A stretch of DNA of 20,000 nt from an uncultured virus (IMG/VR IMGVR_UViG_3300042992_002627) (IMGVR_UViG_3300042992_002627); one strand, 5' to 3'; shown: positions 1-19,161, counted from the first letter of the stretch. Notes: generated from the sequence alone by a model not told the origin. Translations and numbers: made by a program.

Positions 1-2
1 TT

Positions 3-239
3 TTAATTTTTGCAAAGCAAGGGATTCAAGGATTTACCACTGATGATGGTGATATTGTTGAACCTAAAACAAAAGAGGAAGTGCTAGAAGATATAGAATT
101 GATTGATGATTTGTTGTCAATTATGAAATCAAAAATGCTCTTAAATAAGAAAAAAGGGTTAAAAGCCGTAATAGATGGACGATTAGCGTTAGCAGTTGCC
201 CCCGATTCAGTTAGAATAGGTGGTACGAATCATTTTTAA
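3..239 (+). CDS. Partial hypothetical protein (5'-truncated by the window edge); gene of cassette-like unit A
   Basis: Hand-translated open frame LIFAKQGIQGFTTDDGDIVEPK...SVRIGGTNHF* ending at TAA 237-239, 10 nt before the AAC of the first site core (250-252). Not in the ORF track. Confidence 0.65.
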   Translation, partial: LIFAKQGIQGFTTDDGDIVEPKTKEEVLEDIELIDDLLSIMKSKMLLNKKKGLKAVIDGRLALAVAPDSVRIGGTNHF

Positions 240-243
240 AATG

Positions 244-280
244 TTTGCCAACGGTTCTCGGCTATATTTAGGCTGGGATT
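244..280. repeat. attC-like site 1, left arm only (degenerate or chimeric)
   Basis: TTTGCCAAC-GGTTCT-CGGCTATATTTAGGCTGGGATT follows a stop codon, as at sites 2 and 3. It is followed by the loop motif AACTTTAAATTAAAACAAAATG shared with site 3. No complementary right arm found. Confidence 0.55.
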
Positions 281-309
281 ATGAAAACGAAACTTTAAAT
301 TAAAACAAA

Positions 310-639
310 ATGAAAGTAGAAATTACAAAAATTATGCAAAGTACCGAAATACTAAACGAAATTAAAAATCAATTAGAACAATTAGAGCATAAAGGCTATG
401 ATAAAAATAGTTTTAAAAGCGGTTACCTTTTAGGATATGCCAAAGCGTTGCAATTGCAACAACCTGATGTTATAAAATCGGTTTGCGGTTCGTTGCCGAT
501 TTCAAAGGTGGTTTTCTTTGAGTTGAAAAAAGGGAAATACCTTGCAAGTAATGGGGTTGAAGTAACAACGGAATTTATACTAAAAAACGAACACGCTATA
601 TTTCACGATAATGGTTATGTGATTGTCGAAAGGCAATGA
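310..639 (+). CDS. Hypothetical protein, probably composite (cassette-like unit B)
   Basis: 109-aa ORF with an A-rich leader. It reads through a right-arm-like sequence (LQQPDVIKS, compare LPQTAVSKS in unit D), with GTT cores at 469 and 481 as in-frame Val codons. Confidence 0.6.
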   Translation: MKVEITKIMQSTEILNEIKNQLEQLEHKGYDKNSFKSGYLLGYAKALQLQQPDVIKSVCGSLPISKVVFFELKKGKYLASNGVEVTTEFILKNEHAIFHDNGYVIVERQ

Positions 640-771
640 CCGCTAACGTTGAGCATATACGAAGGCAGGGCTTTTAAATACCAAAGCTCGGTTACTTCCG
701 AAAGCTCAATAGAAATACAAAAGTTGAAAGTTTGCACGTCTGCCCTGCTTTTGTATATGCATTGTTGGCAG
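640..771. repeat. attC-like recombination hairpin (site 2)
   Basis: GCTAAC (642-647), GTTGA, then arm GCATATACGAAGGCAGGGC (653-671), 70-nt loop, arm GCCCTGCTTTTGTATATGC (742-760), ATT, GTTGGC (764-769). 17/19 Watson-Crick pairs plus 2 G.T pairs on the + strand. Confidence 0.8.
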
Positions 772-807
772 TAGTGCTTTTTATTTACAAACAAAAATTA
801 AACAAAT

Positions 808-1227
808 ATGAAAATAGTAAAAATATTATTAGACGATGGAACAAGTAGAGAAGTAGGAGAAATTAAACCTTTATCTCACTTTGAAGAAAAATACCCTGAA
901 AATAATAAATGGTATTGGCAAAGGTGTTACGAAAGACAATTCAATAATTTTGAAGATGATATTATTGAATTTCTAAATGAAAGTAATGTTGAAGAATACG
1001 CAAAAGACCACTTAAATTTAGTTGAAGAAGACGATGTGGAAGAAAAAGATATTTCTGATTTTACTGATGCTGAAATTTTAGAAGAAATGAAAGATAGAAA
1101 ATTAAATAAAGGAGGGAATATAATTACTTCTAGTTTTATTGAAAGATTTGAAAACATTGTAAAAGCAGAAAACATTATTTTATTAGACAATTTACTTTCT
1201 GAATTAGAAACTAAACTCAATCTTTAG
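808..1227 (+). CDS. Acidic hypothetical protein (cassette-like unit C)
   Basis: 139-aa, Glu/Asp-rich ORF with an A-rich leader, flanked by inverted repeats at 764-777 and 1239-1252. Confidence 0.75.
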   Translation: MKIVKILLDDGTSREVGEIKPLSHFEEKYPENNKWYWQRCYERQFNNFEDDIIEFLNESNVEEYAKDHLNLVEEDDVEEKDISDFTDAEILEEMKDRKLNKGGNIITSSFIERFENIVKAENIILLDNLLSELETKLNL

Positions 1228-1245
1228 CGACTCCAACGGCATTAC

Positions 1246-1382
1246 TGCCAACGTTCCGCAGCTTGTGGTCAGTTGCGGATTTAAGCACCGAGCCACAAAA
1301 AAATAAACAATAACTTTAAATTTAAAAACAATGAATAAAAATAATTCCAAAGACCCGCAATTGCCACAAACTGCTGTTAGCA
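1246..1382. repeat. attC-like recombination hairpin (site 3), overlapping the start of the YopX gene
   Basis: GCCAAC (1247-1252), GTTCC, then arm GCAGCTTGTGGTCAGTTGCGG (1258-1278), 76-nt loop, arm CCGCAATTGCCACAAACTGC (1355-1374), T, GTTAGC (1376-1381). One bulged T, one G.T and one C.A mismatch. Confidence 0.8.
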
Positions 1383-1771
1383 AATCGGCTTTAAAATTTG
1401 AATACGGATTTAATTCTGTGAATGGAATTGTAAAAAAGAGGTACTATTTAAGCGAAATACCGTTTATGCACGATAAATGCGATGTTTGGCAAATCTTACC
1501 AGTTGTTTATGTTAGGCAATTTACTGGATTTACAGACAAAAAAGAAGTTGAAATTTATCAAGGCGATATTTGTAAATACCATAAAAATACAAGTAAATGG
1601 TTAGTATCATATCATTTTGAAGTAAGGTTTAGAAATGGTGCTTTTTATGCTTATTGGGAACGTGAAATGATGGGAAAATTAGAGCAACATTGGGATTTAC
1701 TTTCTCAAAAAGATATGCGAAATATTAGAGTGGTTTCAGATATTTTTCAATCAGCGCAAACTACGTCATAA
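1331..1771 (+). CDS. YopX-family phage protein (cassette-like unit D)
   Basis: Motif RQFTGFTDKKEVEIYQGDI...FEVRFRNGAF...IRVVSDIFQ matches the YopX pattern (QxTGLxDKNGxEIYEGDI...EVIGNIYE). Confidence 0.8.
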   Translation: MNKNNSKDPQLPQTAVSKSALKFEYGFNSVNGIVKKRYYLSEIPFMHDKCDVWQILPVVYVRQFTGFTDKKEVEIYQGDICKYHKNTSKWLVSYHFEVRFRNGAFYAYWEREMMGKLEQHWDLLSQKDMRNIRVVSDIFQSAQTTS

Positions 1772-1836
1772 GCTGTTTGCTAACTACTATATGTAAAAAC
1801 CATTTATAAACCTTAACAAAATAAACACTACACGCC
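1770..1836. other. Candidate attI-like primary recombination site
   Basis: TTTGCTAAC core (AAC at 1782-1784) is not followed by a hairpin arm and lies 52 nt upstream of the integrase ATG. On the minus strand it reads ...TATAGTAG|TTAGCAAAC, pointing away from the integrase like attI. Confidence 0.55.
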
Positions 1837-2640
1837 ATGAACATCGGAAAGTACCTCGAAATGTATTCCGACGATTTAAAGTTAAAAAACTATTCGTCAA
1901 ACACAATTGAAAATTACAAATCACAAGTGGGATTATTTTTAAAACACTTTGATAAAGTAGCAACCAAGCCATCTGAGATATCAGAAAAACAAATAAAAGA
2001 ATGGTTGCTGATGGCCAACTCAATTAACGGCAGAAAACACAGAATATCTGCCGTGAAATTGTTTTACAAACTAACAGGAAAACAGCCTTTGAAGTTCCGT
2101 CACATTGAATATCCGCGGTCCGAAAAGAAGTTACCACAAATAATTGACAAAACCTATCTATTGGAATCAATCAATAAAATACAAAACAAAAAACACAAAG
2201 CCATCATTGCTTTGGCATACTCAACCGGAATGCGAGTTTCCGAAGTATGTAATTTGTTGATTGCCGATATCGACAGCAAACGAATGATTATTACCATCCG
2301 ACAATCAAAAGGGAAAAAAGACCGCATTGTGGCATTGTCATCAAAAATACTTGAAATACTTCGCGAGTACTTCAAAGAATACAAGCCAAAAACATTTTTA
2401 TTCAACGGTCAATTTGGTGATCAGTATTCACACACGAGCTGCAACCAAATAGTAAAACAATATTTAGGAAAAGAATTTCACTTTCATCAGCTCCGGCACT
2501 CAAATGCGACAGCACTTTTAGAAGCGGGAACCGATTTGCGAATCATACAAAAACACCTGGGCCACGCGTCTAGTAAAACAACAGAAATCTACACCCACGT
2601 CAGCACCAATTTATTACAATCAATGGCATTACCAATTTAA
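1837..2640 (+). CDS. Tyrosine recombinase, integron-integrase-like / XerD-like with N-terminal SAM-like domain
   Basis: N-terminal LKLKNYSSNTIENY. Catalytic motifs: YSTGMRVSEV (R), QSKGKKDR (K), HQLRHS (HxxR), LGH, TEIYTHV (Y). 267 aa. Confidence 0.93.
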   Translation: MNIGKYLEMYSDDLKLKNYSSNTIENYKSQVGLFLKHFDKVATKPSEISEKQIKEWLLMANSINGRKHRISAVKLFYKLTGKQPLKFRHIEYPRSEKKLPQIIDKTYLLESINKIQNKKHKAIIALAYSTGMRVSEVCNLLIADIDSKRMIITIRQSKGKKDRIVALSSKILEILREYFKEYKPKTFLFNGQFGDQYSHTSCNQIVKQYLGKEFHFHQLRHSNATALLEAGTDLRIIQKHLGHASSKTTEIYTHVSTNLLQSMALPI

Positions 2641-2650
2641 AAACTCAAAG

Positions 2651-2884
2651 ATGAAAATCTTCTTCACCTCCTTTTTTCAAATCGGCTTAGTAGCAATCAA
2701 TACCTACATGATCACGCAATTAATATGGCTCGGAATCTTTATAGTTTCATTTTTAATATCGCTATTGTGGTGTTTCAATGTGTCAAAAATATCCGTATCA
2801 ACCAGGGCAGCCAAATTAATCTACGCAACCGGTGCAGGAACCGGAGCTGTAACCGGACTTTTAATCTTAAAACTATTTATTTAA
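2651..2884 (+). CDS. Small membrane protein
   Basis: 77 aa with about three hydrophobic segments, starting 10 nt after the integrase stop. Confidence 0.7.
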   Translation: MKIFFTSFFQIGLVAINTYMITQLIWLGIFIVSFLISLLWCFNVSKISVSTRAAKLIYATGAGTGAVTGLLILKLFI

Positions 2885-2898
2885 CTAAAAATAAAGTC

Positions 2899-3021
2899 AT
2901 GCCAGAAACTGAAAAAGACAACTTGATCAAAAATCTTTACAAGTGTATCGAAGAACAAAAAGCGACAATAGAAATGCTTTACAAAGAAATAGATTTATTA
3001 AAAAAACCGACTAAAAAATGA
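2899..3021 (+). CDS. Small coiled-coil hypothetical protein (40 aa)
   Basis: MPETEKDNLIKNLYKCIEEQKATIEMLYKEIDLLKKPTKK. ATG 2899 follows an A-rich leader and is a better start than 2725, which would overlap the upstream gene. Confidence 0.5.
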   Translation: MPETEKDNLIKNLYKCIEEQKATIEMLYKEIDLLKKPTKK

Positions 3022-3072
3022 AACCATATTGTTGATGTCAACAAAAAGGTTTTTAACTAAAAAACAAAAACA

Positions 3073-3336
3073 ATGAACCCAAAACAATTTGCACAAACAT
3101 CCCACCGCATTGCTGTATTATCGGCATTGTTGGTTGAATCGTTGGAAGATATCAATGCATCATCCGCTGCAGCTTTAGATTTAAAGCAAAAAGCCAAAGA
3201 AATCATTCCGCATTGTGAAAGAATGCTCGAAGAAGTTTACACCGCCAAAAACATCACTTCCGGCACCTACTTTAACGAGCTTTCAAATAAAGTAGATACC
3301 GTAATCCGTAAAAATTTTGAAATAATAACGATGTAA
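3073..3336 (+). CDS. Hypothetical phage protein
   Basis: 87-aa ORF with an A-rich leader, tightly packed with the next gene. Confidence 0.7.
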   Translation: MNPKQFAQTSHRIAVLSALLVESLEDINASSAAALDLKQKAKEIIPHCERMLEEVYTAKNITSGTYFNELSNKVDTVIRKNFEIITM

Positions 3337-3338
3337 CC

Positions 3339-3731
3339 ATGAAAAAACACACCTTCGAAACCTATCAAAAAAAAATAATTGATTCAAACATCAAAAACCT
3401 TGAACACGAGCCAATTGTAAAACTTTGTTATGTTTTTTATTGTTTCATCACTGAAATTTATGAAAATTATATTGAAGATTGCGGAATCCCGTATTCTCCC
3501 AGCAGTGTAAATCGCGAATATTGCGAAAAGGTACTTAGTGTTTACCGAACATTATTTAATCGAATTCCTTCTTTAAACCAGGATCAATTGAACTGCTTTA
3601 TTCTTAGTATAAACGGTAATGATTTTAGTTATTACCAAGCACTTATGAATGTTAGATATAAAATTGAAGATGCTGAAAGATTTAAACCCGAAAACTTCGA
3701 CTTGTTTCACGATCAATTTAAAGCTTACTAA
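3339..3731 (+). CDS. Hypothetical phage protein
   Basis: 130-aa ORF starting 2 nt after the previous stop. Confidence 0.65.
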   Translation: MKKHTFETYQKKIIDSNIKNLEHEPIVKLCYVFYCFITEIYENYIEDCGIPYSPSSVNREYCEKVLSVYRTLFNRIPSLNQDQLNCFILSINGNDFSYYQALMNVRYKIEDAERFKPENFDLFHDQFKAY

Positions 3732-3732
3732 A

Positions 3733-3972
3733 ATGAGCCTTTTAAAACTACTTAACGAAGCAAAAAAACTCTACAGCGAAACCCGTGGAGCTGCATTTGT
3801 CATCACCGGTTCCAACTGTGGTGAATATTGGTTCTTAAAAATGCCTTCCATTGGTGAAACCTTTGAAAGTGTGCATTTAGAAACCGTATTGGAAGATTAT
3901 ATTGACCTGGTACTTAACAACCGTGTCAAAGTGGCGAAAAGAAAAAACACAACAAAAGAATTCCGACTATAA
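3733..3972 (+). CDS. Hypothetical phage protein
   Basis: Likely start is ATG 3733 (MSLLKLL...), 1 nt after the upstream stop. The ORF ends immediately before the terL ATG. Confidence 0.65.
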   Translation: MSLLKLLNEAKKLYSETRGAAFVITGSNCGEYWFLKMPSIGETFESVHLETVLEDYIDLVLNNRVKVAKRKNTTKEFRL

Positions 3973-5688
3973 ATGCAACCAGCCCAATCCCAACTCGAAT
4001 CAATCCCTTTTCAATATGCAGCCGCCGTTCGTTCCGGTGAAATTACTGTTGGAAAAAAAATAAAACTTGCTGTCGAGCGGTTTTATCAATGGATAGAAAC
4101 CGCTGAAGCCGATGGTTATCACCTCGATCATGCAACTGGCATGTTTGCAGTTACGTTCTTTGAAAACTTCCTGAACCATACCGAAGGAAAAATGGCGGGA
4201 AAACCGTTTGTGTTGGCACCATTTCAGCAATTTACCATTTACAACGTGTTCGGGTGGAAAGATGCCACCGGCAAACGCCGAATCAAAACCATTTACGACA
4301 AACGAGCCAAGAAAAACGGAAAAACGGCTGAAATGGCAGGTGTGGCATTATATTGCATGTCGTTTGATGAAGAAATCAAAGCTCAGGTGTTTATTGGGGC
4401 CACAAAAGAAGAACAGGCACGCCTTTGTTGGAATGCGGCCAAAGATTTCATTGATTCCTTTGTGGCAAACACTCGTTTAAAGCAATTGGGCTTTCGGACC
4501 ATGCAAAACAAGGTGATTTTCGAACCTACCAACAGTTTTCTTCGTCCGTTGGGTGGCGATAGTAAAACCCAGGATGGAATTAACAGCCATTTATCGATAA
4601 TTGATGAATATCACGCTCATGCAACCGATGGCGTGAAAGAAAACCTTGAATCATCAGCAGTTCAACGCTTGCAACCTTTAACTTGGCACATCACAACAGC
4701 CGGAACTAACATTGCATCGGTGTGTAAAAATTATGAAGATTCGGTTATTGAAGTGTTGGAAGGCCGAAAAAAAGACGACCGCCTTTGGATTATGATCCAT
4801 GATTTAGATGAAGATGACGATTGGAACGATGAAAGTAAATGGATAAAAGCCAATCCATTATTAAACCAAGGACTTTCAATCGACAATATTCGCGATGAAT
4901 ACCTTAAATGTGTCAATCAACCTTCTAAAATTCCGAATTTCAAAACCAAACATCTAAACATGTGGGTCGATGCTCCAAAAATTTGGATTCCAACCGAAAT
5001 ATGGCAAAAAAATAAAATTTCCGAAATACCGTTATCTAAGTTCCAAAAACATGGAAGCTATGCAGCTCTCGATTTGTCAACCACTACAGATTTAACAGCA
5101 TTTGCTATACTTTCCGAACCCGATGAACACGAAAAGCGATATTTAAAAGTATTACTGTTTTGTCCTGAAAAAACAATCGAAAGACGAAGCAAAGAAGACC
5201 GTGTTCCTTACAAATATTGGGCAGATGCAGGTTTTATCATTGCAACACCCGGTGATGTTGTAGATCATGCCGTTGTAGAAGATAGAATTCGCATTGAATA
5301 CCACAAACATGCAGTAAAACGCATCGAAATAGATCGCTATTTGGCAACAAATATCACATCAAATTTACAAGAAGAAGGTTTTGAAGTGGCCTATTTTACA
5401 CAAACAATTACAAATTATTCGTTTCCAACCAAAGAATTTGAACGCCTTGTTTACTTAAATAAAATAATTCACGACGGTAATCCCGTTTTAGAATGGATGC
5501 TTTCCGGGTGTGTGGTGATTTCCGACACAAACGAAAACATCCGAATATCAAAATCACGTTCACACGCAGGAGGTAAGAGAATCGATGGAATAATAGCTTC
5601 AATCATGGCATTAGGCGGTTCGTTATCACCAAAAGAAGAAAAATCAAAATACGAAAAACCAATGGATGAATCCGAAATCTATATATAA
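3973..5688 (+). CDS. terL: Terminase large subunit (Terminase_1-like)
   Basis: Adenine-binding LAPFQQF, Walker A AKKNGKT, Walker B SIIDEYH, coupling motif ITTAG, RNase H-like ALDLS, and C-terminal RIDGIIA. Confidence 0.96.
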   Translation: MQPAQSQLESIPFQYAAAVRSGEITVGKKIKLAVERFYQWIETAEADGYHLDHATGMFAVTFFENFLNHTEGKMAGKPFVLAPFQQFTIYNVFGWKDATGKRRIKTIYDKRAKKNGKTAEMAGVALYCMSFDEEIKAQVFIGATKEEQARLCWNAAKDFIDSFVANTRLKQLGFRTMQNKVIFEPTNSFLRPLGGDSKTQDGINSHLSIIDEYHAHATDGVKENLESSAVQRLQPLTWHITTAGTNIASVCKNYEDSVIEVLEGRKKDDRLWIMIHDLDEDDDWNDESKWIKANPLLNQGLSIDNIRDEYLKCVNQPSKIPNFKTKHLNMWVDAPKIWIPTEIWQKNKISEIPLSKFQKHGSYAALDLSTTTDLTAFAILSEPDEHEKRYLKVLLFCPEKTIERRSKEDRVPYKYWADAGFIIATPGDVVDHAVVEDRIRIEYHKHAVKRIEIDRYLATNITSNLQEEGFEVAYFTQTITNYSFPTKEFERLVYLNKIIHDGNPVLEWMLSGCVVISDTNENIRISKSRSHAGGKRIDGIIASIMALGGSLSPKEEKSKYEKPMDESEIYI

Positions 5689-5707
5689 CATAAAAACATT
5701 ATTAACT

Positions 5708-5953
5708 ATGACAAAGCTGGAAATCGAACAAAAAAAAATCATCGAAAAACAACAACATAAAATAAATCTAATGCGAAAGCTGGCAACATCATCTGGTTTT
5801 TTTGAGTATTATTTTTCAATCTTAAAAAAGTTTAAAACACAGTGTAGTTGTTTTCATGAAGTGAATGACATGTATTTTAATTTTTTTGGTGAATACAAAT
5901 ATTCCGATTACAACAGTTTTAGAAATACATTAAAAAGACAATATAAAAAATGA
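5708..5953 (+). CDS. Hypothetical phage protein (basic, aromatic-rich)
   Basis: Probable start ATG 5708 (MTKLEIEQ...) after an A-rich leader. ATGA overlap with the next gene. Confidence 0.65.
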   Translation: MTKLEIEQKKIIEKQQHKINLMRKLATSSGFFEYYFSILKKFKTQCSCFHEVNDMYFNFFGEYKYSDYNSFRNTLKRQYKK

Positions 5954-6141
5954 AAAACCCTAACCTTATTTCCTTTCTGGTGTTGCTTGCCGGAATTGCC
6001 TTGCTCATGGTCACATCCATGCTTTTAGAGCTCGATTTCTTTAACCGTAAAATAGTGCGACAAATAATTGTGTACTTCATAATGCTTTTCGAAGCTTATG
6101 TAATGTTTCGAATTTTAAAAAACATTAATCAAAATAATTAA
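5950..6141 (+). CDS. Small two-TM membrane protein
   Basis: 63 aa with two hydrophobic stretches separated by a basic loop. Confidence 0.65.
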   Translation: MKNPNLISFLVLLAGIALLMVTSMLLELDFFNRKIVRQIIVYFIMLFEAYVMFRILKNINQNN

Positions 6142-6161
6142 AAAACTAAAAAATTAAACCA

Positions 6162-6500
6162 ATGAAAACAATATACATTTCCGGCAAAATAACCGGCATT
6201 GAAGAAGAAGCCTTCCAATTATTTCAACAAATAGAAACAGTGCTATTTATAAAAGGCTACACACCTGTTAACCCAATGAAGTTACAACACAATAACCACG
6301 ATCAAAGTTGGCATTCCTACATGAAAACCGACATCAAAGCGTTATGCGATTGCGATGAAATATTTATGCTCACCAATTGGGCCGATAGTAAAGGAGCAAT
6401 CATCGAGCATACCATTGCAATGTTTTTGGGTTTAAAAGTAACCTACCAGCAAAACCATCAAGTTAAAACAGCAGTACCAACCAAAACTATAAGTGTATAA
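6162..6500 (+). CDS. DUF4406-family protein (nucleoside deoxyribosyltransferase-like fold)
   Basis: Signature IYISGKITG...NP...W..YM..DI..L..CD.I.ML..W..SKGA..E. Confidence 0.88.
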   Translation: MKTIYISGKITGIEEEAFQLFQQIETVLFIKGYTPVNPMKLQHNNHDQSWHSYMKTDIKALCDCDEIFMLTNWADSKGAIIEHTIAMFLGLKVTYQQNHQVKTAVPTKTISV

Positions 6501-6576
6501 ATAACACCTAAGCAAAAAGCCAAAGCAACTAATTTAAAAAGTTCAATTACAAATTGTTTCATTTGTAAATATAAAA

Positions 6577-6627
6577 AAAAAAGGAAACATAGTTGCACAA
6601 TCACCTTAAATTCCTGTTCTACTTTTG
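6577..6627 (+). promoter_or_regulatory. Putative late promoter upstream of the portal gene
   Basis: AAAAAAGGAAACATAGTTGCACAA, then 19 nt, then TACTTTTG (6620-6627), which fits the Bacteroidota -7 consensus TAnnTTTG. The box recurs at 13406-13429. Confidence 0.65.
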
Positions 6628-6652
6628 AAGTAATTTAAAATAAAAAGTAGTA

Positions 6653-7879
6653 ATGGGCATTTTTAAAAATATCTTTGCACTGCCTGAAATCCGTAATACT
6701 GTAGCCACTTTAAAAGTGCCTTATACAAGTTCATTCGGATTGTTTGGTGGCATGGCTACCGAAGCTACTTTGGCAAACAGCAAATCAGCTTTTACAATAT
6801 CAGCATTTTACAATGCAGTAGATCAGATTTCAAACGATATTGCAAAACTCCCCAAACACATCTACAAAAAAGAAGGTAAAAACCGTTTTGTCAACACAAA
6901 TCACCCGGCAAATTACCTTATTTCTTCGGCTCCAAACGATCTGATGACTTCCTTCGATTTTTGGAAAATCATTACTATTTCTACTATTATAAAAGGAAAC
7001 GGATATGCCGAAATCATTCGTAACGAAGTAACCGGAATTGAAGAAGCGTTTATTTTTAGAGATTCCGATGATGTAAAAGTATATGCAGGCGAAAACTTTA
7101 TGTTTTACAAATACAAAGGTAGCACAATCGAATCGTCAAACATGTTGCATTTTAAAGGACTTTCCTTTGATGGTGTTGTGGGTGTTGGAATCATAACCTT
7201 TGCGGCCCAGCAATTAGGCATCATGCTCGATGGCAAAAAATACCAGGGCGACATTTATAAAGATCGTGGTTTGGGTTATGGTGTTATAGAAACAGATTTG
7301 GCGGTTGCGGCACCTAATAAAAAAATGATTGAAGATGGTTTTACTAAAAAACTAGCGGCTGGCAATAAATTTAATGTACCTATGTTAGATGAAGGATTTA
7401 AGTATAAATCTATTTCTGTAACACCGCAGGAAGCCGAATTTTTAGCATCCGATAAAAATGCAGTGGTCGAAGTATGTCGTTGGTTAAACATAGCACCACA
7501 CAAATTAAAACACCTGGATAATGCAACTTTCAGCAACATCCAACACCAATCAATCGAACATGTTCAGGATTCTTTGTTGCCGTGGATCACTCGCGATGAA
7601 CAGGAATTAAACCGCAAATTATTTACGGTTGTGCAGCGTGAAACCTTATACACAAAATTTAACGAAAAATTTCTTTTACGTGGCGACCTCGAAGCACGTA
7701 AAAACTTTTATACAGCCGGAATCTATTCAGGCTTTTTAACACGTAACGAAGTGCGAAGCCTGGAAGATATGGATCCTATTGATGGATTAGATGAACCATT
7801 ACAACCAGTTAATATGCAAACACTCGAAATGGTCGAAAACCTAACAAAACAAAGTGCAAATGAAAACAGTAGTAACTAA
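6653..7879 (+). CDS. Portal protein, HK97 family
   Basis: AVDQISNDIAKLP, GNGYAEI, MLHFKGLSFDGVVG, NIAPHKL, TFSNIQHQ, LTRNEVRSLEDMDPIDGLD. 408 aa. Confidence 0.96.
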   Translation: MGIFKNIFALPEIRNTVATLKVPYTSSFGLFGGMATEATLANSKSAFTISAFYNAVDQISNDIAKLPKHIYKKEGKNRFVNTNHPANYLISSAPNDLMTSFDFWKIITISTIIKGNGYAEIIRNEVTGIEEAFIFRDSDDVKVYAGENFMFYKYKGSTIESSNMLHFKGLSFDGVVGVGIITFAAQQLGIMLDGKKYQGDIYKDRGLGYGVIETDLAVAAPNKKMIEDGFTKKLAAGNKFNVPMLDEGFKYKSISVTPQEAEFLASDKNAVVEVCRWLNIAPHKLKHLDNATFSNIQHQSIEHVQDSLLPWITRDEQELNRKLFTVVQRETLYTKFNEKFLLRGDLEARKNFYTAGIYSGFLTRNEVRSLEDMDPIDGLDEPLQPVNMQTLEMVENLTKQSANENSSN

Positions 7880-8489
7880 CGAAAATATGCAAATACGCGA
7901 AGCTGTGCTTCGTGCATTAACGCCTGAGCAAATTGAAAATCGCACGGCAGAATTTGTAATTTCTTCCGAAGCAAAAGATACATATGGAACCGTATTTAAA
8001 TTATCCGGGTGGGATTTGCAGCGATACAACGCAAATCCATTGGTGTGCTACAATCACTATTCCTGGGGAACTGATCCCGATACAATCATCGGAACATCTG
8101 AAGTATTTGTGGATGGTGATGTTTTAGTGGGTCGCGTTCGTTTTGAAACCGAAGATATTAACCCGAAAGCCGAAAAGGTTTGGAAAAAAGTGCAAGCCGG
8201 AACGCTTCGCATGGCATCGGTAGGTGTAAATGTAAAACGCGGTCATTGGGGTGATGATAAGTTGGGTGAAGATACCGATACGTTGTATTTTGATGAACAT
8301 GAGTTGCTAGAATGGTCCGTTGTGGCAATTGGCAGCAACCCCGATGCTGTGAAACGTAATGCAGAAAACTTCGAAGAAATTAAACTTCGATTTAAAAATA
8401 ATGAAGTTCCACCAGTGGTTGAAACTCCTACAGAAAAGCTTTCAGTTCGTGAAGCTCAGTTGAATTATAATCTAAAAAAGTTTAAGTAA
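7860..8489 (+). CDS. Prohead maturation protease, HK97 family
   Basis: NPLVCYNH, LRMASVG, ELLEWSVVAIGSNPDA; lies between portal and capsid. The start could be 7854, 7860 or a slightly later ATG. Confidence 0.92.
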   Translation: MKTVVTNENMQIREAVLRALTPEQIENRTAEFVISSEAKDTYGTVFKLSGWDLQRYNANPLVCYNHYSWGTDPDTIIGTSEVFVDGDVLVGRVRFETEDINPKAEKVWKKVQAGTLRMASVGVNVKRGHWGDDKLGEDTDTLYFDEHELLEWSVVAIGSNPDAVKRNAENFEEIKLRFKNNEVPPVVETPTEKLSVREAQLNYNLKKFK

Positions 8490-9796
8490 TGAAAAAAAGT
8501 GTTGAATTAAAGCAAACACGAGCTTCTAAATTGGAAGCTCAAAAGCGAATTATCGATGCTGCAAAAGCAGAAAATCGAGATTTCACGGCCGAAGAAAACA
8601 CACAGTTATCTTCGTTAGACACTGAGGTGGAAGCCTTAGATGGTCAAATTGTTCAATCAGAAATTAATGAGGCTCGCGAAATGCGAATTGCTCAAATTTC
8701 TGCAAAACCTGTTTCGCACGAATTAGGTAACGGTGAGCAAAGAGAAAACGAGAAAATGAAAGCTCGTTTCTCTATTCACAAAGTGGTTCGTGCCGGAATG
8801 CAAAACGGTGCACCATTGTCAGGTGTAGAATTAGAGTTTCACCAAGAAGCTTCTAAACGTGCAGCTGCTGCTGGCGTTGCAATTCAAGGATTTGCAATTC
8901 CTTTGGCTGAAAAACGTGCCGATGGTCAAACTGTAACACAAGATTCTACAAACTACGGTGGAAAATTGGTTGCTACTGAAGTAACAGATCCTATTGAGTT
9001 TTTACGCCCGCAACCGGTTTTAGAAGCCTTAGGGGCTCGTTACCTTACAGGATTGCAAGGAAACGTTCAATTCCCTACAAACGATGGCGGAATTGTAGCA
9101 AGTTGGGAGACTGAGGTGGCAAACGTGGCAAACACTAAAATTGCATACGGTAGTAAAACAATGTCACCAAAACGTTTAGCGGTGAGTGTGCCTATTTCGT
9201 TGCAAAACATCCTTCAATCATCTGTAGCTTTAGAAAGCTATACAATGGCTGAAATGATGGCAGAGGTGGCTCTAAAAATTGACCAAGCCGGTATTGTTGG
9301 AACAGGTTCTATCAATGGAATCTTAAACGTTGCAGGAACAACTGCTGTTGTTGGTGGTACAAACGGTGCGGCTCCAACTTGGGACAACATTATTGATTTA
9401 GAAACCGGTGTGTATGTGCAAAACGCAAACAGTGCTCAATTGGCTTATTTGTTTAACGCAGTTACTCGCGGTAAATTAAAAAGAACCAAACACACTGCTG
9501 GTGATTTCAACTACTTAATGACACCTGAAAACATGGTGAACGGTTACAAAGTTGGAATGTCTAACAACGTGCCTTCAAACCTCGTAAAAGGTACTTCAGG
9601 TGCTATTTGTTCAGCTGGTATCTTTGGTGATTTCTCTCAATTAATTATCGGTCAGTGGGGCTTTATGGATCTATCTGTTGACGAAGTAAGCCGTAAAAGA
9701 GAAGGTTATGTGGAAATCACATTGAACACTTTCTTAGATATTTTGGTGCGTCAACCAAAAGCATTCTCAGTGGTAAAAGACTGGTTAACTGCTTAA
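8489..9796 (+). CDS. Major capsid protein, HK97 fold, with N-terminal coiled-coil delta domain
   Basis: Helical N-terminus, GGKLV, MSPKRLA, GTGSINGILN, GIFGDFSQ, VRQPKAF. 435 aa. Confidence 0.96.
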   Translation: MKKSVELKQTRASKLEAQKRIIDAAKAENRDFTAEENTQLSSLDTEVEALDGQIVQSEINEAREMRIAQISAKPVSHELGNGEQRENEKMKARFSIHKVVRAGMQNGAPLSGVELEFHQEASKRAAAAGVAIQGFAIPLAEKRADGQTVTQDSTNYGGKLVATEVTDPIEFLRPQPVLEALGARYLTGLQGNVQFPTNDGGIVASWETEVANVANTKIAYGSKTMSPKRLAVSVPISLQNILQSSVALESYTMAEMMAEVALKIDQAGIVGTGSINGILNVAGTTAVVGGTNGAAPTWDNIIDLETGVYVQNANSAQLAYLFNAVTRGKLKRTKHTAGDFNYLMTPENMVNGYKVGMSNNVPSNLVKGTSGAICSAGIFGDFSQLIIGQWGFMDLSVDEVSRKREGYVEITLNTFLDILVRQPKAFSVVKDWLTA

Positions 9797-9806
9797 TATT
9801 TTAAGT

Positions 9807-10151
9807 ATGGCAAAAGCAAAAAAAGAAGCAGCTACTGTAGTAGCTGCTTTACAAAAAGTATATGAAGAAGCAGCGAAAAAAGTAGCTGACTTATCAGATG
9901 AAGAAACACTCGAAGTGCGACAAGCATTAGCTGAAGAAGTGGCTGCTGCTTTAGAAAACTTGAACAATGCTAAAAAAGAGGTTTTGGTAAAGTTCAAGTT
10001 TATTAAATCGCCCACTGGTCGTTTTGGGTTGGGTTACAATGCCGGCGATAGCGGCTATATTTCTCTTTTATTAGCCGATGTGGCACAAGAAGAAGGATAT
10101 GGCTTTATTCAAGAAGGTAAAGATGTAGCCGATATCGAAGTAACCGAATAA
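9807..10151 (+). CDS. Hypothetical head-associated protein
   Basis: 114 aa with an Ala/Glu/Lys helical N-terminus, located between capsid and connector. Confidence 0.7.
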   Translation: MAKAKKEAATVVAALQKVYEEAAKKVADLSDEETLEVRQALAEEVAAALENLNNAKKEVLVKFKFIKSPTGRFGLGYNAGDSGYISLLLADVAQEEGYGFIQEGKDVADIEVTE

Positions 10152-10161
10152 AGCAAAAACA

Positions 10162-10713
10162 ATGATCACAAACGCTACTATCACACCAGCCAGTTCTTAT
10201 GAAGTTGTTTCTTTAGCTTTAGCAAAAATGCAATTGCGTATTGAAAGTAGTTTCACGGCGGAAGATACTTTGATTCAATCAATGATTGCTTCGGCGGTTT
10301 CTGCTGCTGAAGATTACATGGGTTGCAAAATTGTTGATAGTGATGTGGTGTTGAACCTGGATGAATTAGAAGATGTTATCAATATTCCTTATCCTGTTCG
10401 AAGTGTAACATCATTAAAATATTTTCCGACGTCCGGTGCTGAAGAAACAATGCCGGACACGGATTATGAATTGCTTCGTTTTGGTAAAGAAAACGGTATT
10501 CGCATAACTGCTTACTGGATTCCTGAAACCGACACACGTTACGATGCCGTGACTATAGCTTTTAAAACGGGTTATGCAACAGGAACGGTTCCTAAACCAA
10601 TTATTCAAGCCGTGTTATTGCAAATCAGTGATATGTATGATCGCCGTGAAGATAGAGTGGAAGTGCCTTTGACAATGTCAACTAAATTGCTTAGACCATA
10701 CAAACTATTCTGA
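10162..10713 (+). CDS. Head-tail connector (HK97 gp6-like)
   Basis: VSLALAKMQLRIE...EDTLIQSMI...AEDY...VPKPIIQAVLLQISDMYDRRE...LLRPYK. Confidence 0.92.
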   Translation: MITNATITPASSYEVVSLALAKMQLRIESSFTAEDTLIQSMIASAVSAAEDYMGCKIVDSDVVLNLDELEDVINIPYPVRSVTSLKYFPTSGAEETMPDTDYELLRFGKENGIRITAYWIPETDTRYDAVTIAFKTGYATGTVPKPIIQAVLLQISDMYDRREDRVEVPLTMSTKLLRPYKLF

Positions 10714-11042
10714 TGGATAAAAAACCATTCATAGGGCAAAAGGACCGCCGCATTGTTATCAATAAAAAAACATTGCTAGGAAACACTGCGGGGGAACGAA
10801 AAGAAACGTTGGTTAAAATAACCGATGCTTGGGCTTTTATGGATGATTTGTCCGGTGGTGAAGATGTAGAAGGCAAAGTAAGAGCTTTATACAGCCGAGC
10901 CTATGTAGTTAGATGGCAAAGTGAATTGTTAACGGAAAAACGCCTGGTGATTGTAGATGATGAACGAACGTTTGAAGTGGTTTATGTTGCTGAAATTGGA
11001 AGAAAGGATCATGTTCGATTAGTGTGCAAAGCTTATGAGTAG
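10713..11042 (+). CDS. Head closure / head-tail adaptor (SPP1 gp16-like)
   Basis: IGQKDRRIVI...WA...VR...FEVVYV pattern, with the expected size and position. Confidence 0.85.
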   Translation: MDKKPFIGQKDRRIVINKKTLLGNTAGERKETLVKITDAWAFMDDLSGGEDVEGKVRALYSRAYVVRWQSELLTEKRLVIVDDERTFEVVYVAEIGRKDHVRLVCKAYE

Positions 11043-11556
11043 CGGAATTAATGTAAACGTCACCGGATTTCGTGAACTCGAAGCTAAAATAAAGCTATTG
11101 GCAAACGATAAAGATAAAAAGCGTGAAATGCTTTTGATTTTACGGCAAGTAGCAAAACCTACGTTGGATGCTTCAAAAACATTGGTTCCTATTTCTAAAA
11201 AAGCACACGTTGCCAGGGGAAAAAGAATTAATCCGAGAAATTTGCAAAAATCACTTGGATTGATACAAGGACGAAAAGGCAATGCAAAAGATAATCCAAC
11301 AATTTATGTTGGTGCTCGTGCAAAAGGTTCTTTTGATGGCTGGTATGCTCACTTTGTACATGAAGGTATAAATGTATATAGAGCAGGTTTTAAACGTAAA
11401 CGTGCCCGTGGTGCAAATGATTCCGCAGCCGTTTCAAGAACAAAAGGAAATCCTTTTTTACGAAAAGCATATCAACAAACACAAGCCGGTGTGACAAACG
11501 ATGCCGAAAAAAGAATGGCAGCATTCCTCCAACGGCGAATAAATAAATTAGCATGA
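11035..11556 (+). CDS. HK97 gp10-family tail component
   Basis: VTGFRELEAKI...GWYAHFVHEG...NPFLRKA. Basic protein. Confidence 0.88.
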   Translation: MSSGINVNVTGFRELEAKIKLLANDKDKKREMLLILRQVAKPTLDASKTLVPISKKAHVARGKRINPRNLQKSLGLIQGRKGNAKDNPTIYVGARAKGSFDGWYAHFVHEGINVYRAGFKRKRARGANDSAAVSRTKGNPFLRKAYQQTQAGVTNDAEKRMAAFLQRRINKLA

Positions 11557-11900
11557 TAATAGTTTCAATAAAAGTAGCCGATTTTTTCCTTACCAAACAG
11601 CCTTATGTGGATGTTTTTGGAGCAAACAGACCTTTTCCGGTAGTAGCTCCTGAAGGAACAAGCTTTCCTTTTGCAACCTACACGATTGATCGTGCCGAAG
11701 GCAAAAGTAAAGATGGTGATGAATATAGTGTAACTGCCTATTTTTGGTTTGATGCCAACAACTACACCGAAATGGCTACGTTGTTAGAAAGCATCATTCC
11801 TGCAATACAAGATGAATATGATTTTCAAGCAGCAACAATGGACTTTGTCGAAGACAACCAATCCTTTGTTGGAATTATAAACTTTTTAATTAATCAATAG
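11553..11900 (+). CDS. Putative tail terminator/completion protein
   Basis: FPVVAPEGTSFPFATY motif, acidic, directly before the tail tube gene. Confidence 0.7.
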   Translation: MIIVSIKVADFFLTKQPYVDVFGANRPFPVVAPEGTSFPFATYTIDRAEGKSKDGDEYSVTAYFWFDANNYTEMATLLESIIPAIQDEYDFQAATMDFVEDNQSFVGIINFLINQ

Positions 11901-11902
11901 AA

Positions 11903-12586
11903 ATGGCAAGAAAAATTTATAAAGGTAAAAACCTTAGAATTTTTGTAGGTGGAAAAGCATTATTGCATTCAACTGAATGTGGCTTTTCAACATCTACCAA
12001 TTTTGAATCAATTGCAACTAAGGACACGAACGGAAACGTTCAAACGCCTGGCAATTACGAATGGTCCGTAACGGCAAACACGCTGTTTGTGGACAAAGAT
12101 GTATTAGATACTGATCGTTTCGATACACTTGAATTATTAGAGCAATATTTAGCTCAGGAAGAAGTGACAATTCAGTTCATGACAAACATTGGTCAGGAAG
12201 TGGTTATTGCTGGAAATGCTTACATGAGCGGTGTTAATTTCTCAGCTCCAACGGAAGGTTCAGCAACCGGTGATTTCTCTTTTCAAGGAAATGGTGATTT
12301 CACAGCAACACGTTTACCAACTGTAGGGGCACTTCCTGTAATTAGTTCTTCAAGTGTAATAGCTATTACAAACGGAACTGCTGGAACACGTGCAACTACA
12401 GCTTCTAACACGCCAACGCTTTACGAATTGGTAGGAACAATTCCTTCAGGTGTAACAATAAACGCTACTTCAGGTTTGATTTCCTGGACAAACGCAGTAC
12501 CTGTAGGTAACTACTTAGGAGCTTTTATTAGAGTAACAAACGCAGCAGGATCTGTAACGCAGGAAATTGCAATCATTGTAACATAA
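11903..12586 (+). CDS. Major tail tube protein with C-terminal Ig-like domain
   Basis: KGKNLRIFV...IATKD...EWSVTAN...FSFQGNG tube motifs, followed by PVISS...GTIPSGVTINATSGLISW...VTNAAGS (putative Ig / He_PIG-like). Confidence 0.9.
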   Translation: MARKIYKGKNLRIFVGGKALLHSTECGFSTSTNFESIATKDTNGNVQTPGNYEWSVTANTLFVDKDVLDTDRFDTLELLEQYLAQEEVTIQFMTNIGQEVVIAGNAYMSGVNFSAPTEGSATGDFSFQGNGDFTATRLPTVGALPVISSSSVIAITNGTAGTRATTASNTPTLYELVGTIPSGVTINATSGLISWTNAVPVGNYLGAFIRVTNAAGSVTQEIAIIVT

Positions 12587-12590
12587 TGTT

Positions 12591-12971
12591 ATGAAAATTA
12601 AAATTAATAAAAAAAACTTTGAACTCACTTTTGGGTTCAAAGTTTTTTACATCTTAGGTAAGCATTGGGAAATGAAAAATTTCAACGATGTGCTCAAACA
12701 TGTGATGTCGGTTTTTGGTGATTATGCTACTACCGATGTAAATAATACTGCTGAAGAACCTAATTTGAGTTTTGCCACAATGGAAGTTTTGGCTGATATT
12801 ATTGTGGCTGCTATTGTGGCTAATAAAGAAAACAAAAAAACTTTTGCTGATTTTGAAACTGCTGAAGTGATTGAATCGATTGTGGAAAACATTGCGGTTA
12901 TTCCGGAAATAATGAAGGAGTTTGTTTCTTCAATGCCTTCACATAAAAAAGAAGAAGATCCGGGAAAGTAG
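12591..12971 (+). CDS. Tail assembly chaperone (lambda gpG-like)
   Basis: Lies between tube and tape measure genes and ends in CCG GGA AAG TAG, containing the slippery heptamer GGGAAAG. Confidence 0.85.
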   Translation: MKIKINKKNFELTFGFKVFYILGKHWEMKNFNDVLKHVMSVFGDYATTDVNNTAEEPNLSFATMEVLADIIVAAIVANKENKKTFADFETAEVIESIVENIAVIPEIMKEFVSSMPSHKKEEDPGK

Positions 12972-12996
12972 TAAGCGGCCAAAAAGATACGCCGCT
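12962..12996 (+). other. Programmed -1 ribosomal frameshift signal
   Basis: G GGA AAG (12962-12968) followed after 5 nt by a stem AGCGGC (12974-12979) / GCCGCT (12991-12996). The -1 frame is open to 13336. Confidence 0.85.
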
Positions 12997-13336
12997 CACG
13001 TTTGATGCTCTGATTGTGTTATGTGGCGAAATGGAAATCAGGTTATCTGATTTCTATGAAATGACACCAAAAGAGTTTTTTTTGTATCGTGAAGGGTTTA
13101 TTGGTAAACGTGATGCCGATGCAAAATTTACTTTAGTAACCACACGAAAATTAATGTTTGCTTCAATTATGCCACATGCCAGACGTGGATTGAAAGAAAC
13201 TGACATTATGGAATTCGCTTGGGAAAACGATTTGATTGAAACACTCACGGAAGAAGAAATAAATGAACAACGAAAAGAAGTACAGCAATCAATCGAGTTT
13301 TGGAAAAATTATGACTTGAATAATAATAGGTGCTAA
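12968..13336 (+). CDS. Tail assembly chaperone frameshift extension (gpT-like part of gpGT)
   Basis: The -1 frame reads VVSGQKDTPLTFDALIVLCGEMEIRLSDFYEMTPKEF..., with the typical FYEMTPxE motif. It includes the ORF-track ORF 13016-13336. Confidence 0.82.
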   Translation, partial: VVSGQKDTPLTFDALIVLCGEMEIRLSDFYEMTPKEFFLYREGFIGKRDADAKFTLVTTRKLMFASIMPHARRGLKETDIMEFAWENDLIETLTEEEINEQRKEVQQSIEFWKNYDLNNNRC

Positions 13337-13366
13337 AATTGGTTTTATATTGTTTGTTTGGTAAAA

Positions 13367-13391
13367 GCCTGTCGAAAGACAGGTTTTTTTT
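13367..13391 (+). terminator. Intrinsic terminator
   Basis: GCCTGTC-GAAA-GACAGGT stem-loop followed by a T-run. An upstream A-run suggests it may be bidirectional. Confidence 0.85.
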
Positions 13392-13405
13392 GTTTTGGTA
13401 AATTG

Positions 13406-13456
13406 AAAAAAGGAAACTTAGTTGCATAAAAATGTTAATGGCTAAGTCTAATTTTA
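13406..13456 (+). promoter_or_regulatory. Putative late promoter upstream of the tape measure gene
   Basis: AAAAAAGGAAACTTAGTTGCATAA, then 19 nt, then TAATTTTA (13449-13456). Same box and spacing as upstream of the portal gene. Confidence 0.6.
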
Positions 13457-13471
13457 TGCAAATTATTTACT

Positions 13472-18480: not shown

Positions 18481-19036
18481 TATAGTAATTCAATTGAACA
18501 CTAAGATTGACAGAAAAACAATTCATGCCGATACTACTATTGATATAGTTAACAACTATGCCAGTGAAGCCCTGCCTTTAAATACATTTAAATATAGTGA
18601 TTTATCGGGATCAGAAAAAGAAGCTTTGAATGAAGTTTTGGATAAACTGACTTATGAAACCGAAGGTGGTGCAATTGTTTGGAATGTTTTTAGAACTGAT
18701 AAAATTTTTGATTTGCGTAGTTCTTATGTTCGTGATGCTCAAAGTACAGAAACGCCTACAACGGATATACCTGATGGTACCGCAATGACGGTTCGGTTTG
18801 AGGTAGCTGGATTTGTTGAAAACACGTATCGAGAAGTCTCTCTTTGGTATAATGAAGATTTTTTAACCCCTGATTTAGATGCTTTAGCTGAAATAGGAAT
18901 TACAATCACGGGTAATGGACGTGATTTTGAAATTACTAATAATTTACCATGTAAAGTGAGTTTTATTAAACCTGGAGCAGTGAGTGATTTTTATATAATT
19001 AACGACGTTGAACAATCTCAAATCATCCCGAAATGA
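18473..19036 (+). CDS. Hypothetical tail-region protein
   Basis: 187-aa acidic ORF overlapping both neighbours. Confidence 0.7.
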   Translation: MSDIVIQLNTKIDRKTIHADTTIDIVNNYASEALPLNTFKYSDLSGSEKEALNEVLDKLTYETEGGAIVWNVFRTDKIFDLRSSYVRDAQSTETPTTDIPDGTAMTVRFEVAGFVENTYREVSLWYNEDFLTPDLDALAEIGITITGNGRDFEITNNLPCKVSFIKPGAVSDFYIINDVEQSQIIPK

Positions 19037-19161
19037 TAAATAATGTAATTCATATAATTCGCTTCACGGCAAAAAAATGGAATCAAGGTATTATTCGCTT
19101 ATTAGCGACAGAAGATAATGTGGTTATAACAACAGAAGATGATAAAATGATTGAATTATGA
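19033..19161 (+). CDS. Small hypothetical protein (42 aa)
   Basis: MINNVIHIIRFTAKKWNQGIIRLLATEDNVVITTEDDKMIEL*, with ATGA overlaps at both ends. Below the ORF-track size cutoff. Confidence 0.6.
   Translation: MINNVIHIIRFTAKKWNQGIIRLLATEDNVVITTEDDKMIEL

Follow-up and report, generated by a model that had tools for sequence, protein, structure and literature searches.

Here we describe the left part of a 20,000-nucleotide (nt) stretch of DNA from an uncultured virus (IMG/VR IMGVR_UViG_3300042992_002627), the whole of which we call the window, in which a run of small open reading frames (ORFs) and imperfect hairpins leads up to a tyrosine recombinase gene. We propose, with a probability of about 0.7, that this locus works as an integron-like platform for gene cassettes in a tailed phage of Flavobacterium type. 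The proposal is carried by the anatomy of the locus, the covariation within its hairpins, their co-occurrence with one family of recombinases, and the breakpoints at AAC seen when metagenomic and cultured relatives were aligned. The phage itself is a tailed freshwater phage of Flavobacterium type. Its packaging and head module lies at 3973-9796 (Pfam matches to large terminase, portal, prohead protease and major capsid protein), and to the left of this module come several small ORFs, then the 267-amino acid (aa) recombinase, and then four short ORFs on the plus strand. The closest named relatives of the window DNA are Flavobacterium and Cellulophaga phages, and a substantial share of the sequence was present in about 22 lake-water or freshwater metagenome runs.

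Each of the four ORFs ends shortly before a core of the type GCYAAC. The first ORF (3-239, 78 aa, open at its 5' end at the left edge) and the second (310-639, 109 aa) have no family match, the third (808-1227, 139 aa) has only a weak match to phrog_24322, and the fourth (1331-1771) is a member of the YopX family (PF09643, E 2.5e-11), the sole Pfam assignment among them. The cores, all on the plus strand, are GCCAAC at 247-252, GCTAAC at 642-647, GCCAAC at 1247-1252 and GCTAAC at 1779-1784; their AAC triplets stand at 250, 645, 1250 and 1782, which is 10, 5, 22 and 10 nt from the respective stop codons. Counted across all of the window, the motif is no more frequent than expected (13 observed, 13.7 expected), but 8 of the 13 occurrences fall within the first 2,020 nt. 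Two of the cores open an attC-like hairpin. Hairpin 2 (642-769, plus strand, 128 nt) runs from GCTAAC at 642-647 to GTTGGC at 764-769 and is made up of a 5-nt spacer, an arm of 19 nt (653-671), a loop (672-741), a second arm of 19 nt (742-760) and a 3-nt spacer. Hairpin 3 (1247-1381, plus strand, 135 nt) runs from GCCAAC at 1247-1252 to GTTAGC at 1376-1381, with arms of about 21 nt at approximately 1258-1278 and 1355-1375. Its loop contains a stretch resembling a ribosome-binding site (RBS) and the start codon of the YopX ORF at 1331, and the first 17 or so codons of this ORF are encoded by the loop and the 3' arm, codons 9-17 by the arm. The arm duplexes have energies of -20.6 (hairpin 2) and -19.6 kcal/mol (hairpin 3), and the next-best hairpin closed by AAC and GTT on either strand of the window reaches -14.1; whole-region folding gave z-scores of -1.84 and -1.08, which taken alone are weak evidence.

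Cores 1 and 4 did not open a hairpin (fold z +0.86 and +0.37). Core 1 is followed, after a putative cassette border behind 252, by an orphan stretch like a 5' arm with no 3' partner, and core 4 is joined directly to the leader of the recombinase gene. The initial annotation had placed the ends of the four ORFs 5-22 nt before the cores, and had described two hairpins of about 130 nt that close on GTTRGC, an asymmetric unpaired spacer beside the core (5 nt on the 5' side vs. 3 on the 3' side in hairpin 2) and a YopX gene among hypothetical genes as cassettes, all of which we found as described. An attC-like reading holds for cores 2 and 3 and not for cores 1 and 4, where hairpins are absent. ORF 310-639 contains an internal GTTA (window 435-475) preceded by the consensus context of a 3' arm; its partner is not the 5' arm behind core 1, and the site looks hybrid or decayed.

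We then turn to the relatives of the locus. A protein search with the recombinase yielded 80 viral loci at 49-89% identity, and 51 of them were analysed because a match from residue 1 fixes the start of the gene; the 29 whose match began further on were left out. The window and the 51 loci, 510,874 nt in all, were scanned on the recombinase strand for hairpins closed by AAC and GTT with a folding energy (dG) of -15 or below. The scan found 127 hairpins. Upstream of the recombinase gene, at distances of 0-5.5 kb, there are 124 of them (about 0.68 per kb), whereas the downstream side has 3 (about 0.01 per kb), and at least one is present in 32 of the 33 viral loci with at least 1.5 kb of upstream sequence. 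The elements begin with TAACG (T in 112 of 124, G in 119 of 124), end with TGTTA (T in 118, A in 111) and have a median span from AAC to GTT of 124 nt (interquartile range 116-126), and their spacers are asymmetric, with 4-5 nt on the 5' side vs. 0-1 nt on the 3' side. An ORF on the plus strand ends within 80 nt upstream of 145 of the 175 borders, at a median distance of 10 nt, and at 33 of those 145 the TAA stop codon is itself part of TAAC. The median distance from border to border is 486 nt.

The arms of these elements vary in sequence while the structure is kept, as had been supposed from the window. Arm identity between elements has a median of 30%, and the duplex energy averages -18.5 kcal/mol for the two arms of one element vs. 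-7.1 (standard deviation 2.2) for arms taken from different elements, with 0.6% of the cross pairs reaching -15. The RNAalifold consensus on a MAFFT alignment of 71 elements (A1) contains 22 pairs, 16 of them with compensatory changes. In this structure 93.6% of the cells are paired vs. 64.1% in shuffles, a figure partly built in by the way the elements were selected, and cells changed on both sides number 441 vs. 136. The covariation score is 0.685, compared with 0.160 in shuffles (none of 500 reached the observed value) and 0.10-0.16 when the structure was slid. Two positions are conserved as G.T wobbles, one beside the TAAC/GTTA box (69 of 71) and one within the stem (59 of 71); no extrahelical bases were identified in the elements, and the two wobbles occupy a comparable fixed place. 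The elements are thus imperfect hairpins, conserved in structure and variable in sequence, with AAC and GTT ends, an unpaired spacer and a variable loop, which is the description of an integron attC site.

A model (R1) was built from alignment A1, with window hairpins 2 (64 bits) and 3 (86 bits) in its seed. In the window R1 recovered these two sites and none elsewhere. In the cultured Flavobacterium phage vB_FspS_mumin6-1 (locus L001) it found 10 unseeded sites within 6.1 kb, all on the plus strand (MN812220.1, 1553-7677, reverse complement), located among small ORFs and four DNA methyltransferase genes. It also found 10 unseeded sites in a chromosomal array described below. Both the one-sided position of the hairpins and the R1 matches are free of the selection for complementarity by which the elements were chosen.

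Other identities for the hairpins were considered. Intrinsic terminators were rejected, as the T-run is absent and the loops have 60-90 nt; invertible-promoter switches were set aside, without a formal test, because the repeats enclose only very short segments and inverted variants did not turn up; and a promoter reading of TTTG...TAnnTTTG at the cores was dropped because it had no consistent second box. An exact 22-nt pattern from site 3 had no match in viral contigs. The region of hairpin 3 (1270-1396) is 77.7% identical to mumin6-1, where it precedes another gene. Over window 1331-1396 and mumin6-1 3060-3125, about 20 first codons are common to unrelated proteins (motif Q-L-P-Q-x-A-V), since it is the hairpin loop and the 3' arm that encode them, and several other cassette pairs are likewise alike only over their N-terminal 19-38 residues.

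The recombinase gene (1837-2640, plus strand) follows the array directly. Its product is a Xer/XerA-like tyrosine recombinase (PF00589, E 4e-40) consisting only of a core-binding domain (PF13495/PF02899) and a catalytic domain (PF00589), the simple Xer-type architecture. It aligns to XerA over its full length, with the catalytic R, H-x-x-R, H and Y in register. The closest solved structures are XerA 4a8e and 5hxy, and the best NCBIfam model is the XerA-like NF040815 (184 bits, cut-off 220). The integron-integrase model TIGR02249 gave 134 bits against a cut-off of 265, in two stretches. The alignment to Vibrio IntI4 (PDB 2a3v) also came in two pieces, with 31 residues of the query (181-211) standing against 79 of IntI4 (183-261), and from this break we conclude that the IntI-specific insertion is absent. 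According to Cury et al. 2016, an integron integrase is marked by an additional domain of about 35 residues near patch III, and this insertion is partly responsible for recognition of the attC structure. Thus the gene is the intact tyrosine recombinase that the initial annotation had reported, of the Xer type and not an integron integrase.

The junction between the array and this gene is itself conserved. Core 4 and the 52-nt leader of the recombinase gene (1785-1836), which begins TACTATATGTAAA, together make up a putative attI-like docking site (1779-1836, plus strand). DNA homology between the window and about 38 relatives begins at 1778-1781, inside core 4, and ends at 2640-2649, at the stop codon; gene and leader therefore form a sharply bounded module amid differing surroundings. 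In all 47 viral loci with at least 70 nt of upstream sequence, an AAC lies about 57 nt before the recombinase ATG and is followed by a TAT-rich box, and four contigs start exactly at the TAAC of this junction. A conserved site therefore stands at the border of the first cassette, as attI does in integrons, and the corresponding role is putative.

Variable gene content, breakpoints at the cores, co-occurrence of hairpins with the recombinase clade and matches of a hairpin model outside its seed had been named as tests of the integron-like idea. The last two are given above, and the first two came out in the same sense: gene content upstream of the recombinase differs among relatives, and metagenomic relatives, lake contigs and cultured phages all break at AAC. 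An all-against-all BLAST of the upstream regions gave 32 high-scoring segment pairs (HSPs) of at least 80% identity and at least 100 bp, and ends at a locus edge were dropped. The left ends lay within 6 nt of an AAC border in 29 of 60 cases, against a background of 1.2% of positions, and the right ends lay at 0 or +1 from a border in 9 of 62. Two decisive blocks, one common to L004 (3002-4028) and L032 (4922-5948) at 92.9% identity and the other to L024 (3143-3977) and L028 (5115-5949) at 95.3%, are recombinase-proximal in one phage and internal in the other. In both, homology stops right after AAC, and beyond it stands the leader in one phage and another hairpin in the other.

We also aligned contigs of four other lake-water runs to window 1-4000, where assembled contigs represent alternative neighbours and not events. 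In two runs the match to the window stops at 648 and the contigs go on into a different hairpin, other contigs join the window at 1781 or 1774 from other cassette ends, and in one run contigs depart at 1784 into a hairpin that takes the place of the leader. ORF 310-639 is joined at 298 and 322 from different upstream sequence in contigs from other lake samples. Lake contigs also diverge at 464, within this ORF. Two read joints, 786>1239 and 1396>1757, were not used, their sides being only 19-28 nt with unknown letters between.

The same breakpoints were observed in cultured phages. Freya_1, Freya_5 and Freya_10, Polaribacter phages with a distant homologue of the recombinase, are 99.9-100% identical over the compared stretches apart from two blocks. 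Freya_5 equals Freya_10 minus 903-4100 (3,198 nt), and Freya_1 equals Freya_10 minus 48076-48920 plus 1-4097 (4,942 nt together), and these two figures match the differences in record length. All block ends lie at AAC, and the partners share at most 13 nt, which is too short for homologous exchange. Some Freya records begin exactly at an AAC core, and in Freya and Ingeline a GCTAAC lies about 50 nt before the start codon of the recombinase. Judged from aligned sequences, then, cassettes have been gained, lost or reordered at the core, which supports the earlier idea of a platform that captures and shuffles accessory genes. An HNH endonuclease gene directly follows the recombinase gene in Freya and Danklef phages (L082 4969-5592 in Freya_10). 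The words 'hairpin' and 'variable region' do not occur in the text of Bartlau et al. 2021.

A chromosomal counterpart was found in Bacteroidota. We collected 78 bacterial loci (L086-L163) with recombinases 40-51% identical to the window enzyme, in which 83 hairpins lie downstream of the gene (0.33 per kb) vs. 6 upstream (0.012 per kb), an approximately 28-fold difference in density. At least one downstream hairpin is present in 33 of the 43 bacterial loci with at least 1.5 kb of downstream sequence, and 71 of the 83 fold better on the strand opposite to the recombinase gene. In Flavobacterium saccharophilum DSM 1811 (L112, 7758-16400), the array downstream of a XerA-like recombinase contains the 10 R1 sites mentioned above, which score as high as 110.8 bits and without exception lie on the other strand from the adjacent recombinase gene. 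Every ORF there precedes its hairpin, a TATAT box abuts the first GTTAGC, and the recombinase also lacks the IntI insertion (206 bits of 265 with the IntI model). R1 sites were found in 21 places in the Flavobacterium metagenome-assembled genome (MAG) G002, which has no DNA match to window 2641-20000. Of the 61 genomes sampled from the host family, the Flavobacteriaceae, 55 had such sites, at 1-30 per genome and in some as singletons. Cassettes common to the phage arrays and the 78 chromosomal loci gave only 3 tblastn matches at E <= 1e-8. IntegronFinder surveys list for Bacteroidetes only In0 elements and one Salinibacter integron. We consider it an even chance that these loci belong to a Bacteroidota-wide analogue of integrons, run by Xer-type recombinases without the IntI domain and shared by chromosomes and phages, in which the phage cassettes would be turned round, so that the hairpin strand is the coding strand, and would shuffle counter-defence genes during infection.

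The cargo of the phage arrays was examined by scanning 150 of the 180 array ORFs against Pfam (E <= 1e-4), and 22 of the 150 had a match. The families are N6/N4 and C5 DNA methylases, Mom, Acb2/Tad1-like, PAPS-reductase-like, GNAT and YopX proteins, as well as dATP/dGTP pyrophosphohydrolase and several domains of unknown function. The Mom matches (PF25680, E 3e-26) are at L009 3221-3829 and at L024 694-3024 and 4053-4832, and a match to the Acb2/Tad1 hairpin domain (PF24729, E 2.8e-7), a family named for anti-CBASS/anti-Thoeris sponges, is at L015 5605-5895. L024 also holds three DNA methylase ORFs within one array. At L023 5192-5512, the first 45 or so residues of a 107-aa cassette ORF match the GTP-binding domain of EF-Tu (PF00009, E 6e-7), and this ORF may be a piece of a gene taken up as a cassette. 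On the other side of the recombinase gene, the window has a 77-aa ORF directly after it (2651-2884, phrog_6764), whose DNA is about 71% identical to genes of the Flavobacterium phages hattifnatt and snusmum; hairpins are absent on that side. The nearest virus record gave no match to window 1-6000.

These observations suggest how the platform may work. A cassette would consist of a hairpin site of about 124 nt and one small ORF, ending a few bases past the stop codon in YAAC. When the plus strand is single-stranded, the hairpin would fold by pairing of its 5' TAAC with its 3' GTTA, giving a short duplex beside an unpaired bulge of 4-5 nt and a stem of about 17 bp that includes both of the G.T wobbles conserved among the elements. 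Cutting and exchange of this strand, at or within AAC, would be the work of the neighbouring Xer-type recombinase or of a homologue that the host supplies in trans. The border is at the 5' end of the hairpin, so the hairpin would move together with the ORF that follows it. A circle of one hairpin and one ORF, here of about 395, 605 or 532 nt, would be released when two hairpins exchange strands, whereas exchange with the double-stranded docking site (AAC plus leader, 52 nt before the start codon) would insert the cassette next to the recombinase gene, and replication would resolve the product. For expression, cassettes co-oriented with the recombinase and the phage genes would bring their own A/T-rich ribosome-binding stretch, and sometimes the start codon, within the hairpin loop. 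The array would then serve as a reserve of exchangeable accessory and counter-defence genes.

It is also conceivable that the cassette array is real and that the phage recombinase has another job, as a lysogeny integrase or a resolvase of genome dimers, with a host chromosomal homologue exchanging the cassettes; the AAC-plus-leader junction would then be an attP or dif-like site. Bartlau et al. 2021 interpret the homologous integrases that Freya, Ingeline and Leef encode as a sign that these phages are temperate, but close homologues of the window recombinase occur on viral contigs of 100-360 kb, which, to judge from their length, probably belong to large phages of the lytic type. A recombinase 84% identical to that of the window is present in a Flavobacterium MAG, on a contig of 119,844 nt, but this contig breaks off within another ORF, 192 nt ahead of the gene, and no integrated copy with a host junction at AAC was found. 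The mumin6-1 array fits such a division of labour, since the whole genome of this phage has no PF00589 gene, and so does the presence in Flavobacteriaceae genomes of homologous recombinases with the same hairpin family. On the other hand, the array abuts the leader at AAC in 47 of 47 loci, and in 32 of 33 the sequence on the left-hand side consists of consecutive phage cassettes and not of host DNA. No dif-like 28-bp site, in which arms of about 11 bp flank a centre of 6-8 bp, was identified at the locus, though no search for one was run. We regard this explanation as unlikely.

The position of the hairpins raises a different question, namely whether they act at the RNA level, between cistrons, to control the processing, stability or translation of each small gene, and are shuffled by general recombination between repeats, as has reportedly been proposed for the promoter/stem-loop cassettes of T4-type phages. 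They are on the sense strand, 5' of each ORF, their loops carry A/T-rich RBS-like stretches and sometimes the start codon, and the modules recur beside unrelated ORFs. The sense strand is the better folder because of the two conserved G.T(U) wobbles (69/71 and 59/71). However, the members of this hairpin family in bacterial chromosomes follow their ORFs on the 3' side and have the TAACG-first strand antisense to them, so the tie to the 5' end of an ORF is not general. Furthermore, breaks fall at one base between elements with unrelated arms, with at most 13 nt shared in Freya, and the strict one-sided association with a family of tyrosine recombinases would be left unexplained. Rfam gave no family for the hairpins, only a single chance-level match to a miRNA precursor (E 0.58). 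This explanation is, in our judgement, quite unlikely. That the hairpins are selfish palindromic repeats, similar to miniature inverted-repeat transposable elements (MITE) or repetitive extragenic palindromes (REP) and spreading in Flavobacteriaceae and their phages independently of the recombinase, is very improbable: R1 sites in 55 of 61 family genomes, 1-30 each with some singletons, would suit it, but the arms are unconserved (30% identity) and thus no transposase-type terminal repeat is present, the borders show no target-site duplication, and 124 of 127 phage hairpins lie on one side of the recombinase gene in a single orientation.

Several points weigh against an integron-like platform. 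The case is built on sequence comparison, and neither a recombination product nor a circle was directly observed. The hairpins lie on the sense strand, 5' of the ORFs and with RBS-like loops, and would therefore also fold in mRNA. The recombinase is without the insertion to which Cury et al. 2016 credit a share of attC recognition. Since mumin6-1 has 10 hairpins and no tyrosine recombinase gene, the phage enzyme is not needed in cis. R1 found no site in Freya, Ingeline or P12002L, where a generic scan for hairpins gave one in P12002L (-14.7, at dG <= -14) and a few in Freya pieces (at dG <= -13). Both the 93.6% pairing and the more stable folding of the plus strand (109 of 124) are in part built in, because the elements were picked by complementarity. 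Finally, the commonest class of homology (16 of 52 HSPs at >= 75% identity) is a hairpin alone between ORFs unrelated in protein. A lone crossover at each site does not give this pattern, which needs attC-type homogeneity or a second process. Chromosomal integrons carry homogeneous attC sites, and the hairpin-only homology may likewise reflect shared site types, with a second process of exchange being possible.

With these points in view, we still prefer the integron-like platform, and we call it integron-like and not an integron because both the IntI domain and the order of ORF and attC fail. In an integron the ORF comes before attC and is transcribed away from intI; in the phage arrays the ORFs share the strand of the recombinase and each lies 3' of its hairpin, the reverse of the order in an integron. 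Integrons are the textbook device of gene capture and are defined via the integrase-specific domain. A complete and apparently active platform with a plain Xer-type enzyme would change what is thought to be needed for hairpin recombination and where cassette pools are sought. If this holds true, recombination of single-strand hairpins would not require an IntI-specific domain, and integron surveys relying on that domain would have missed the cassette pool of a whole phylum. Accessory and counter-defence genes of phages, among them those for methylases, Mom and Acb2/Tad1-like proteins, turn over fast, and the platform would also supply a concrete mechanism for this. The platform is present in phages that include cultured ones differing only by cassette blocks, and Freya with its Polaribacter host would offer a laboratory test system.

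Among known systems, integrons, especially the sedentary chromosomal ones, are similar in having a tyrosine recombinase gene, a docking site beside it and an array in which single-gene cassettes all point the same way. Their sites, too, are imperfect AAC/GTT hairpins with an unpaired spacer and a variable loop, with the crossover at the AAC/GTT box, and the same site types are common to unrelated cassettes, with methylase and defence-related genes among the cargo. On the AAC-first strand the order is hairpins, docking site and sense recombinase, and the same order is derived for the integron bottom strand, which is the one that integrons recombine in folded form, with replication resolving the product. 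Unlike integron integrases, the phage enzyme is without the IntI insertion (31 residues vs. 79 in IntI4; 134 vs. 265 bits). In addition, the phage ORFs lie downstream of the hairpin on the recombinase strand, so that the strand of the recombinogenic type is the coding strand, translation signals lie in the loops, and the whole is phage-borne.

Integron-type sites in phages are not new as such, although the initial annotation knew of no characterized example like this in a Bacteroidota siphophage. Qi et al. 2023 (PMC9892861) report that phages carry integrase-less attC clusters (CALINs), with attC-type sites around DNA methyltransferase genes, and that IntI1 recombined one site of Polaribacter phage P12002L. 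The mumin6-1 array without a recombinase gene resembles these clusters, which, as described there, have 2-3 sites and no dedicated enzyme or docking site, whereas the locus described here is a complete platform with its own, non-IntI recombinase. A limited set of full-text literature searches turned up no account of such a recombinase encoded by a phage and accompanied by an array, and that study came closest.

Two further systems bear on the enzyme. In the integration of CTX phage, XerCD is said to recombine folded single-stranded DNA. There, as we infer for the platform, a simple Xer-type recombinase with core-binding and catalytic domains would act on a hairpin-folded single strand, but the platform has many arrayed sites exchanging genes and not the integration of a whole phage. 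The chromosomal arrays of Bacteroidota have the same hairpin family, recombinases 40-51% identical without the IntI insertion, and an AT-rich TATAT box by the first core; in contrast to the phage arrays, theirs lie downstream of the gene with the TAACG-first strand opposite to it, and the ORFs come before the hairpins as in classical cassettes.

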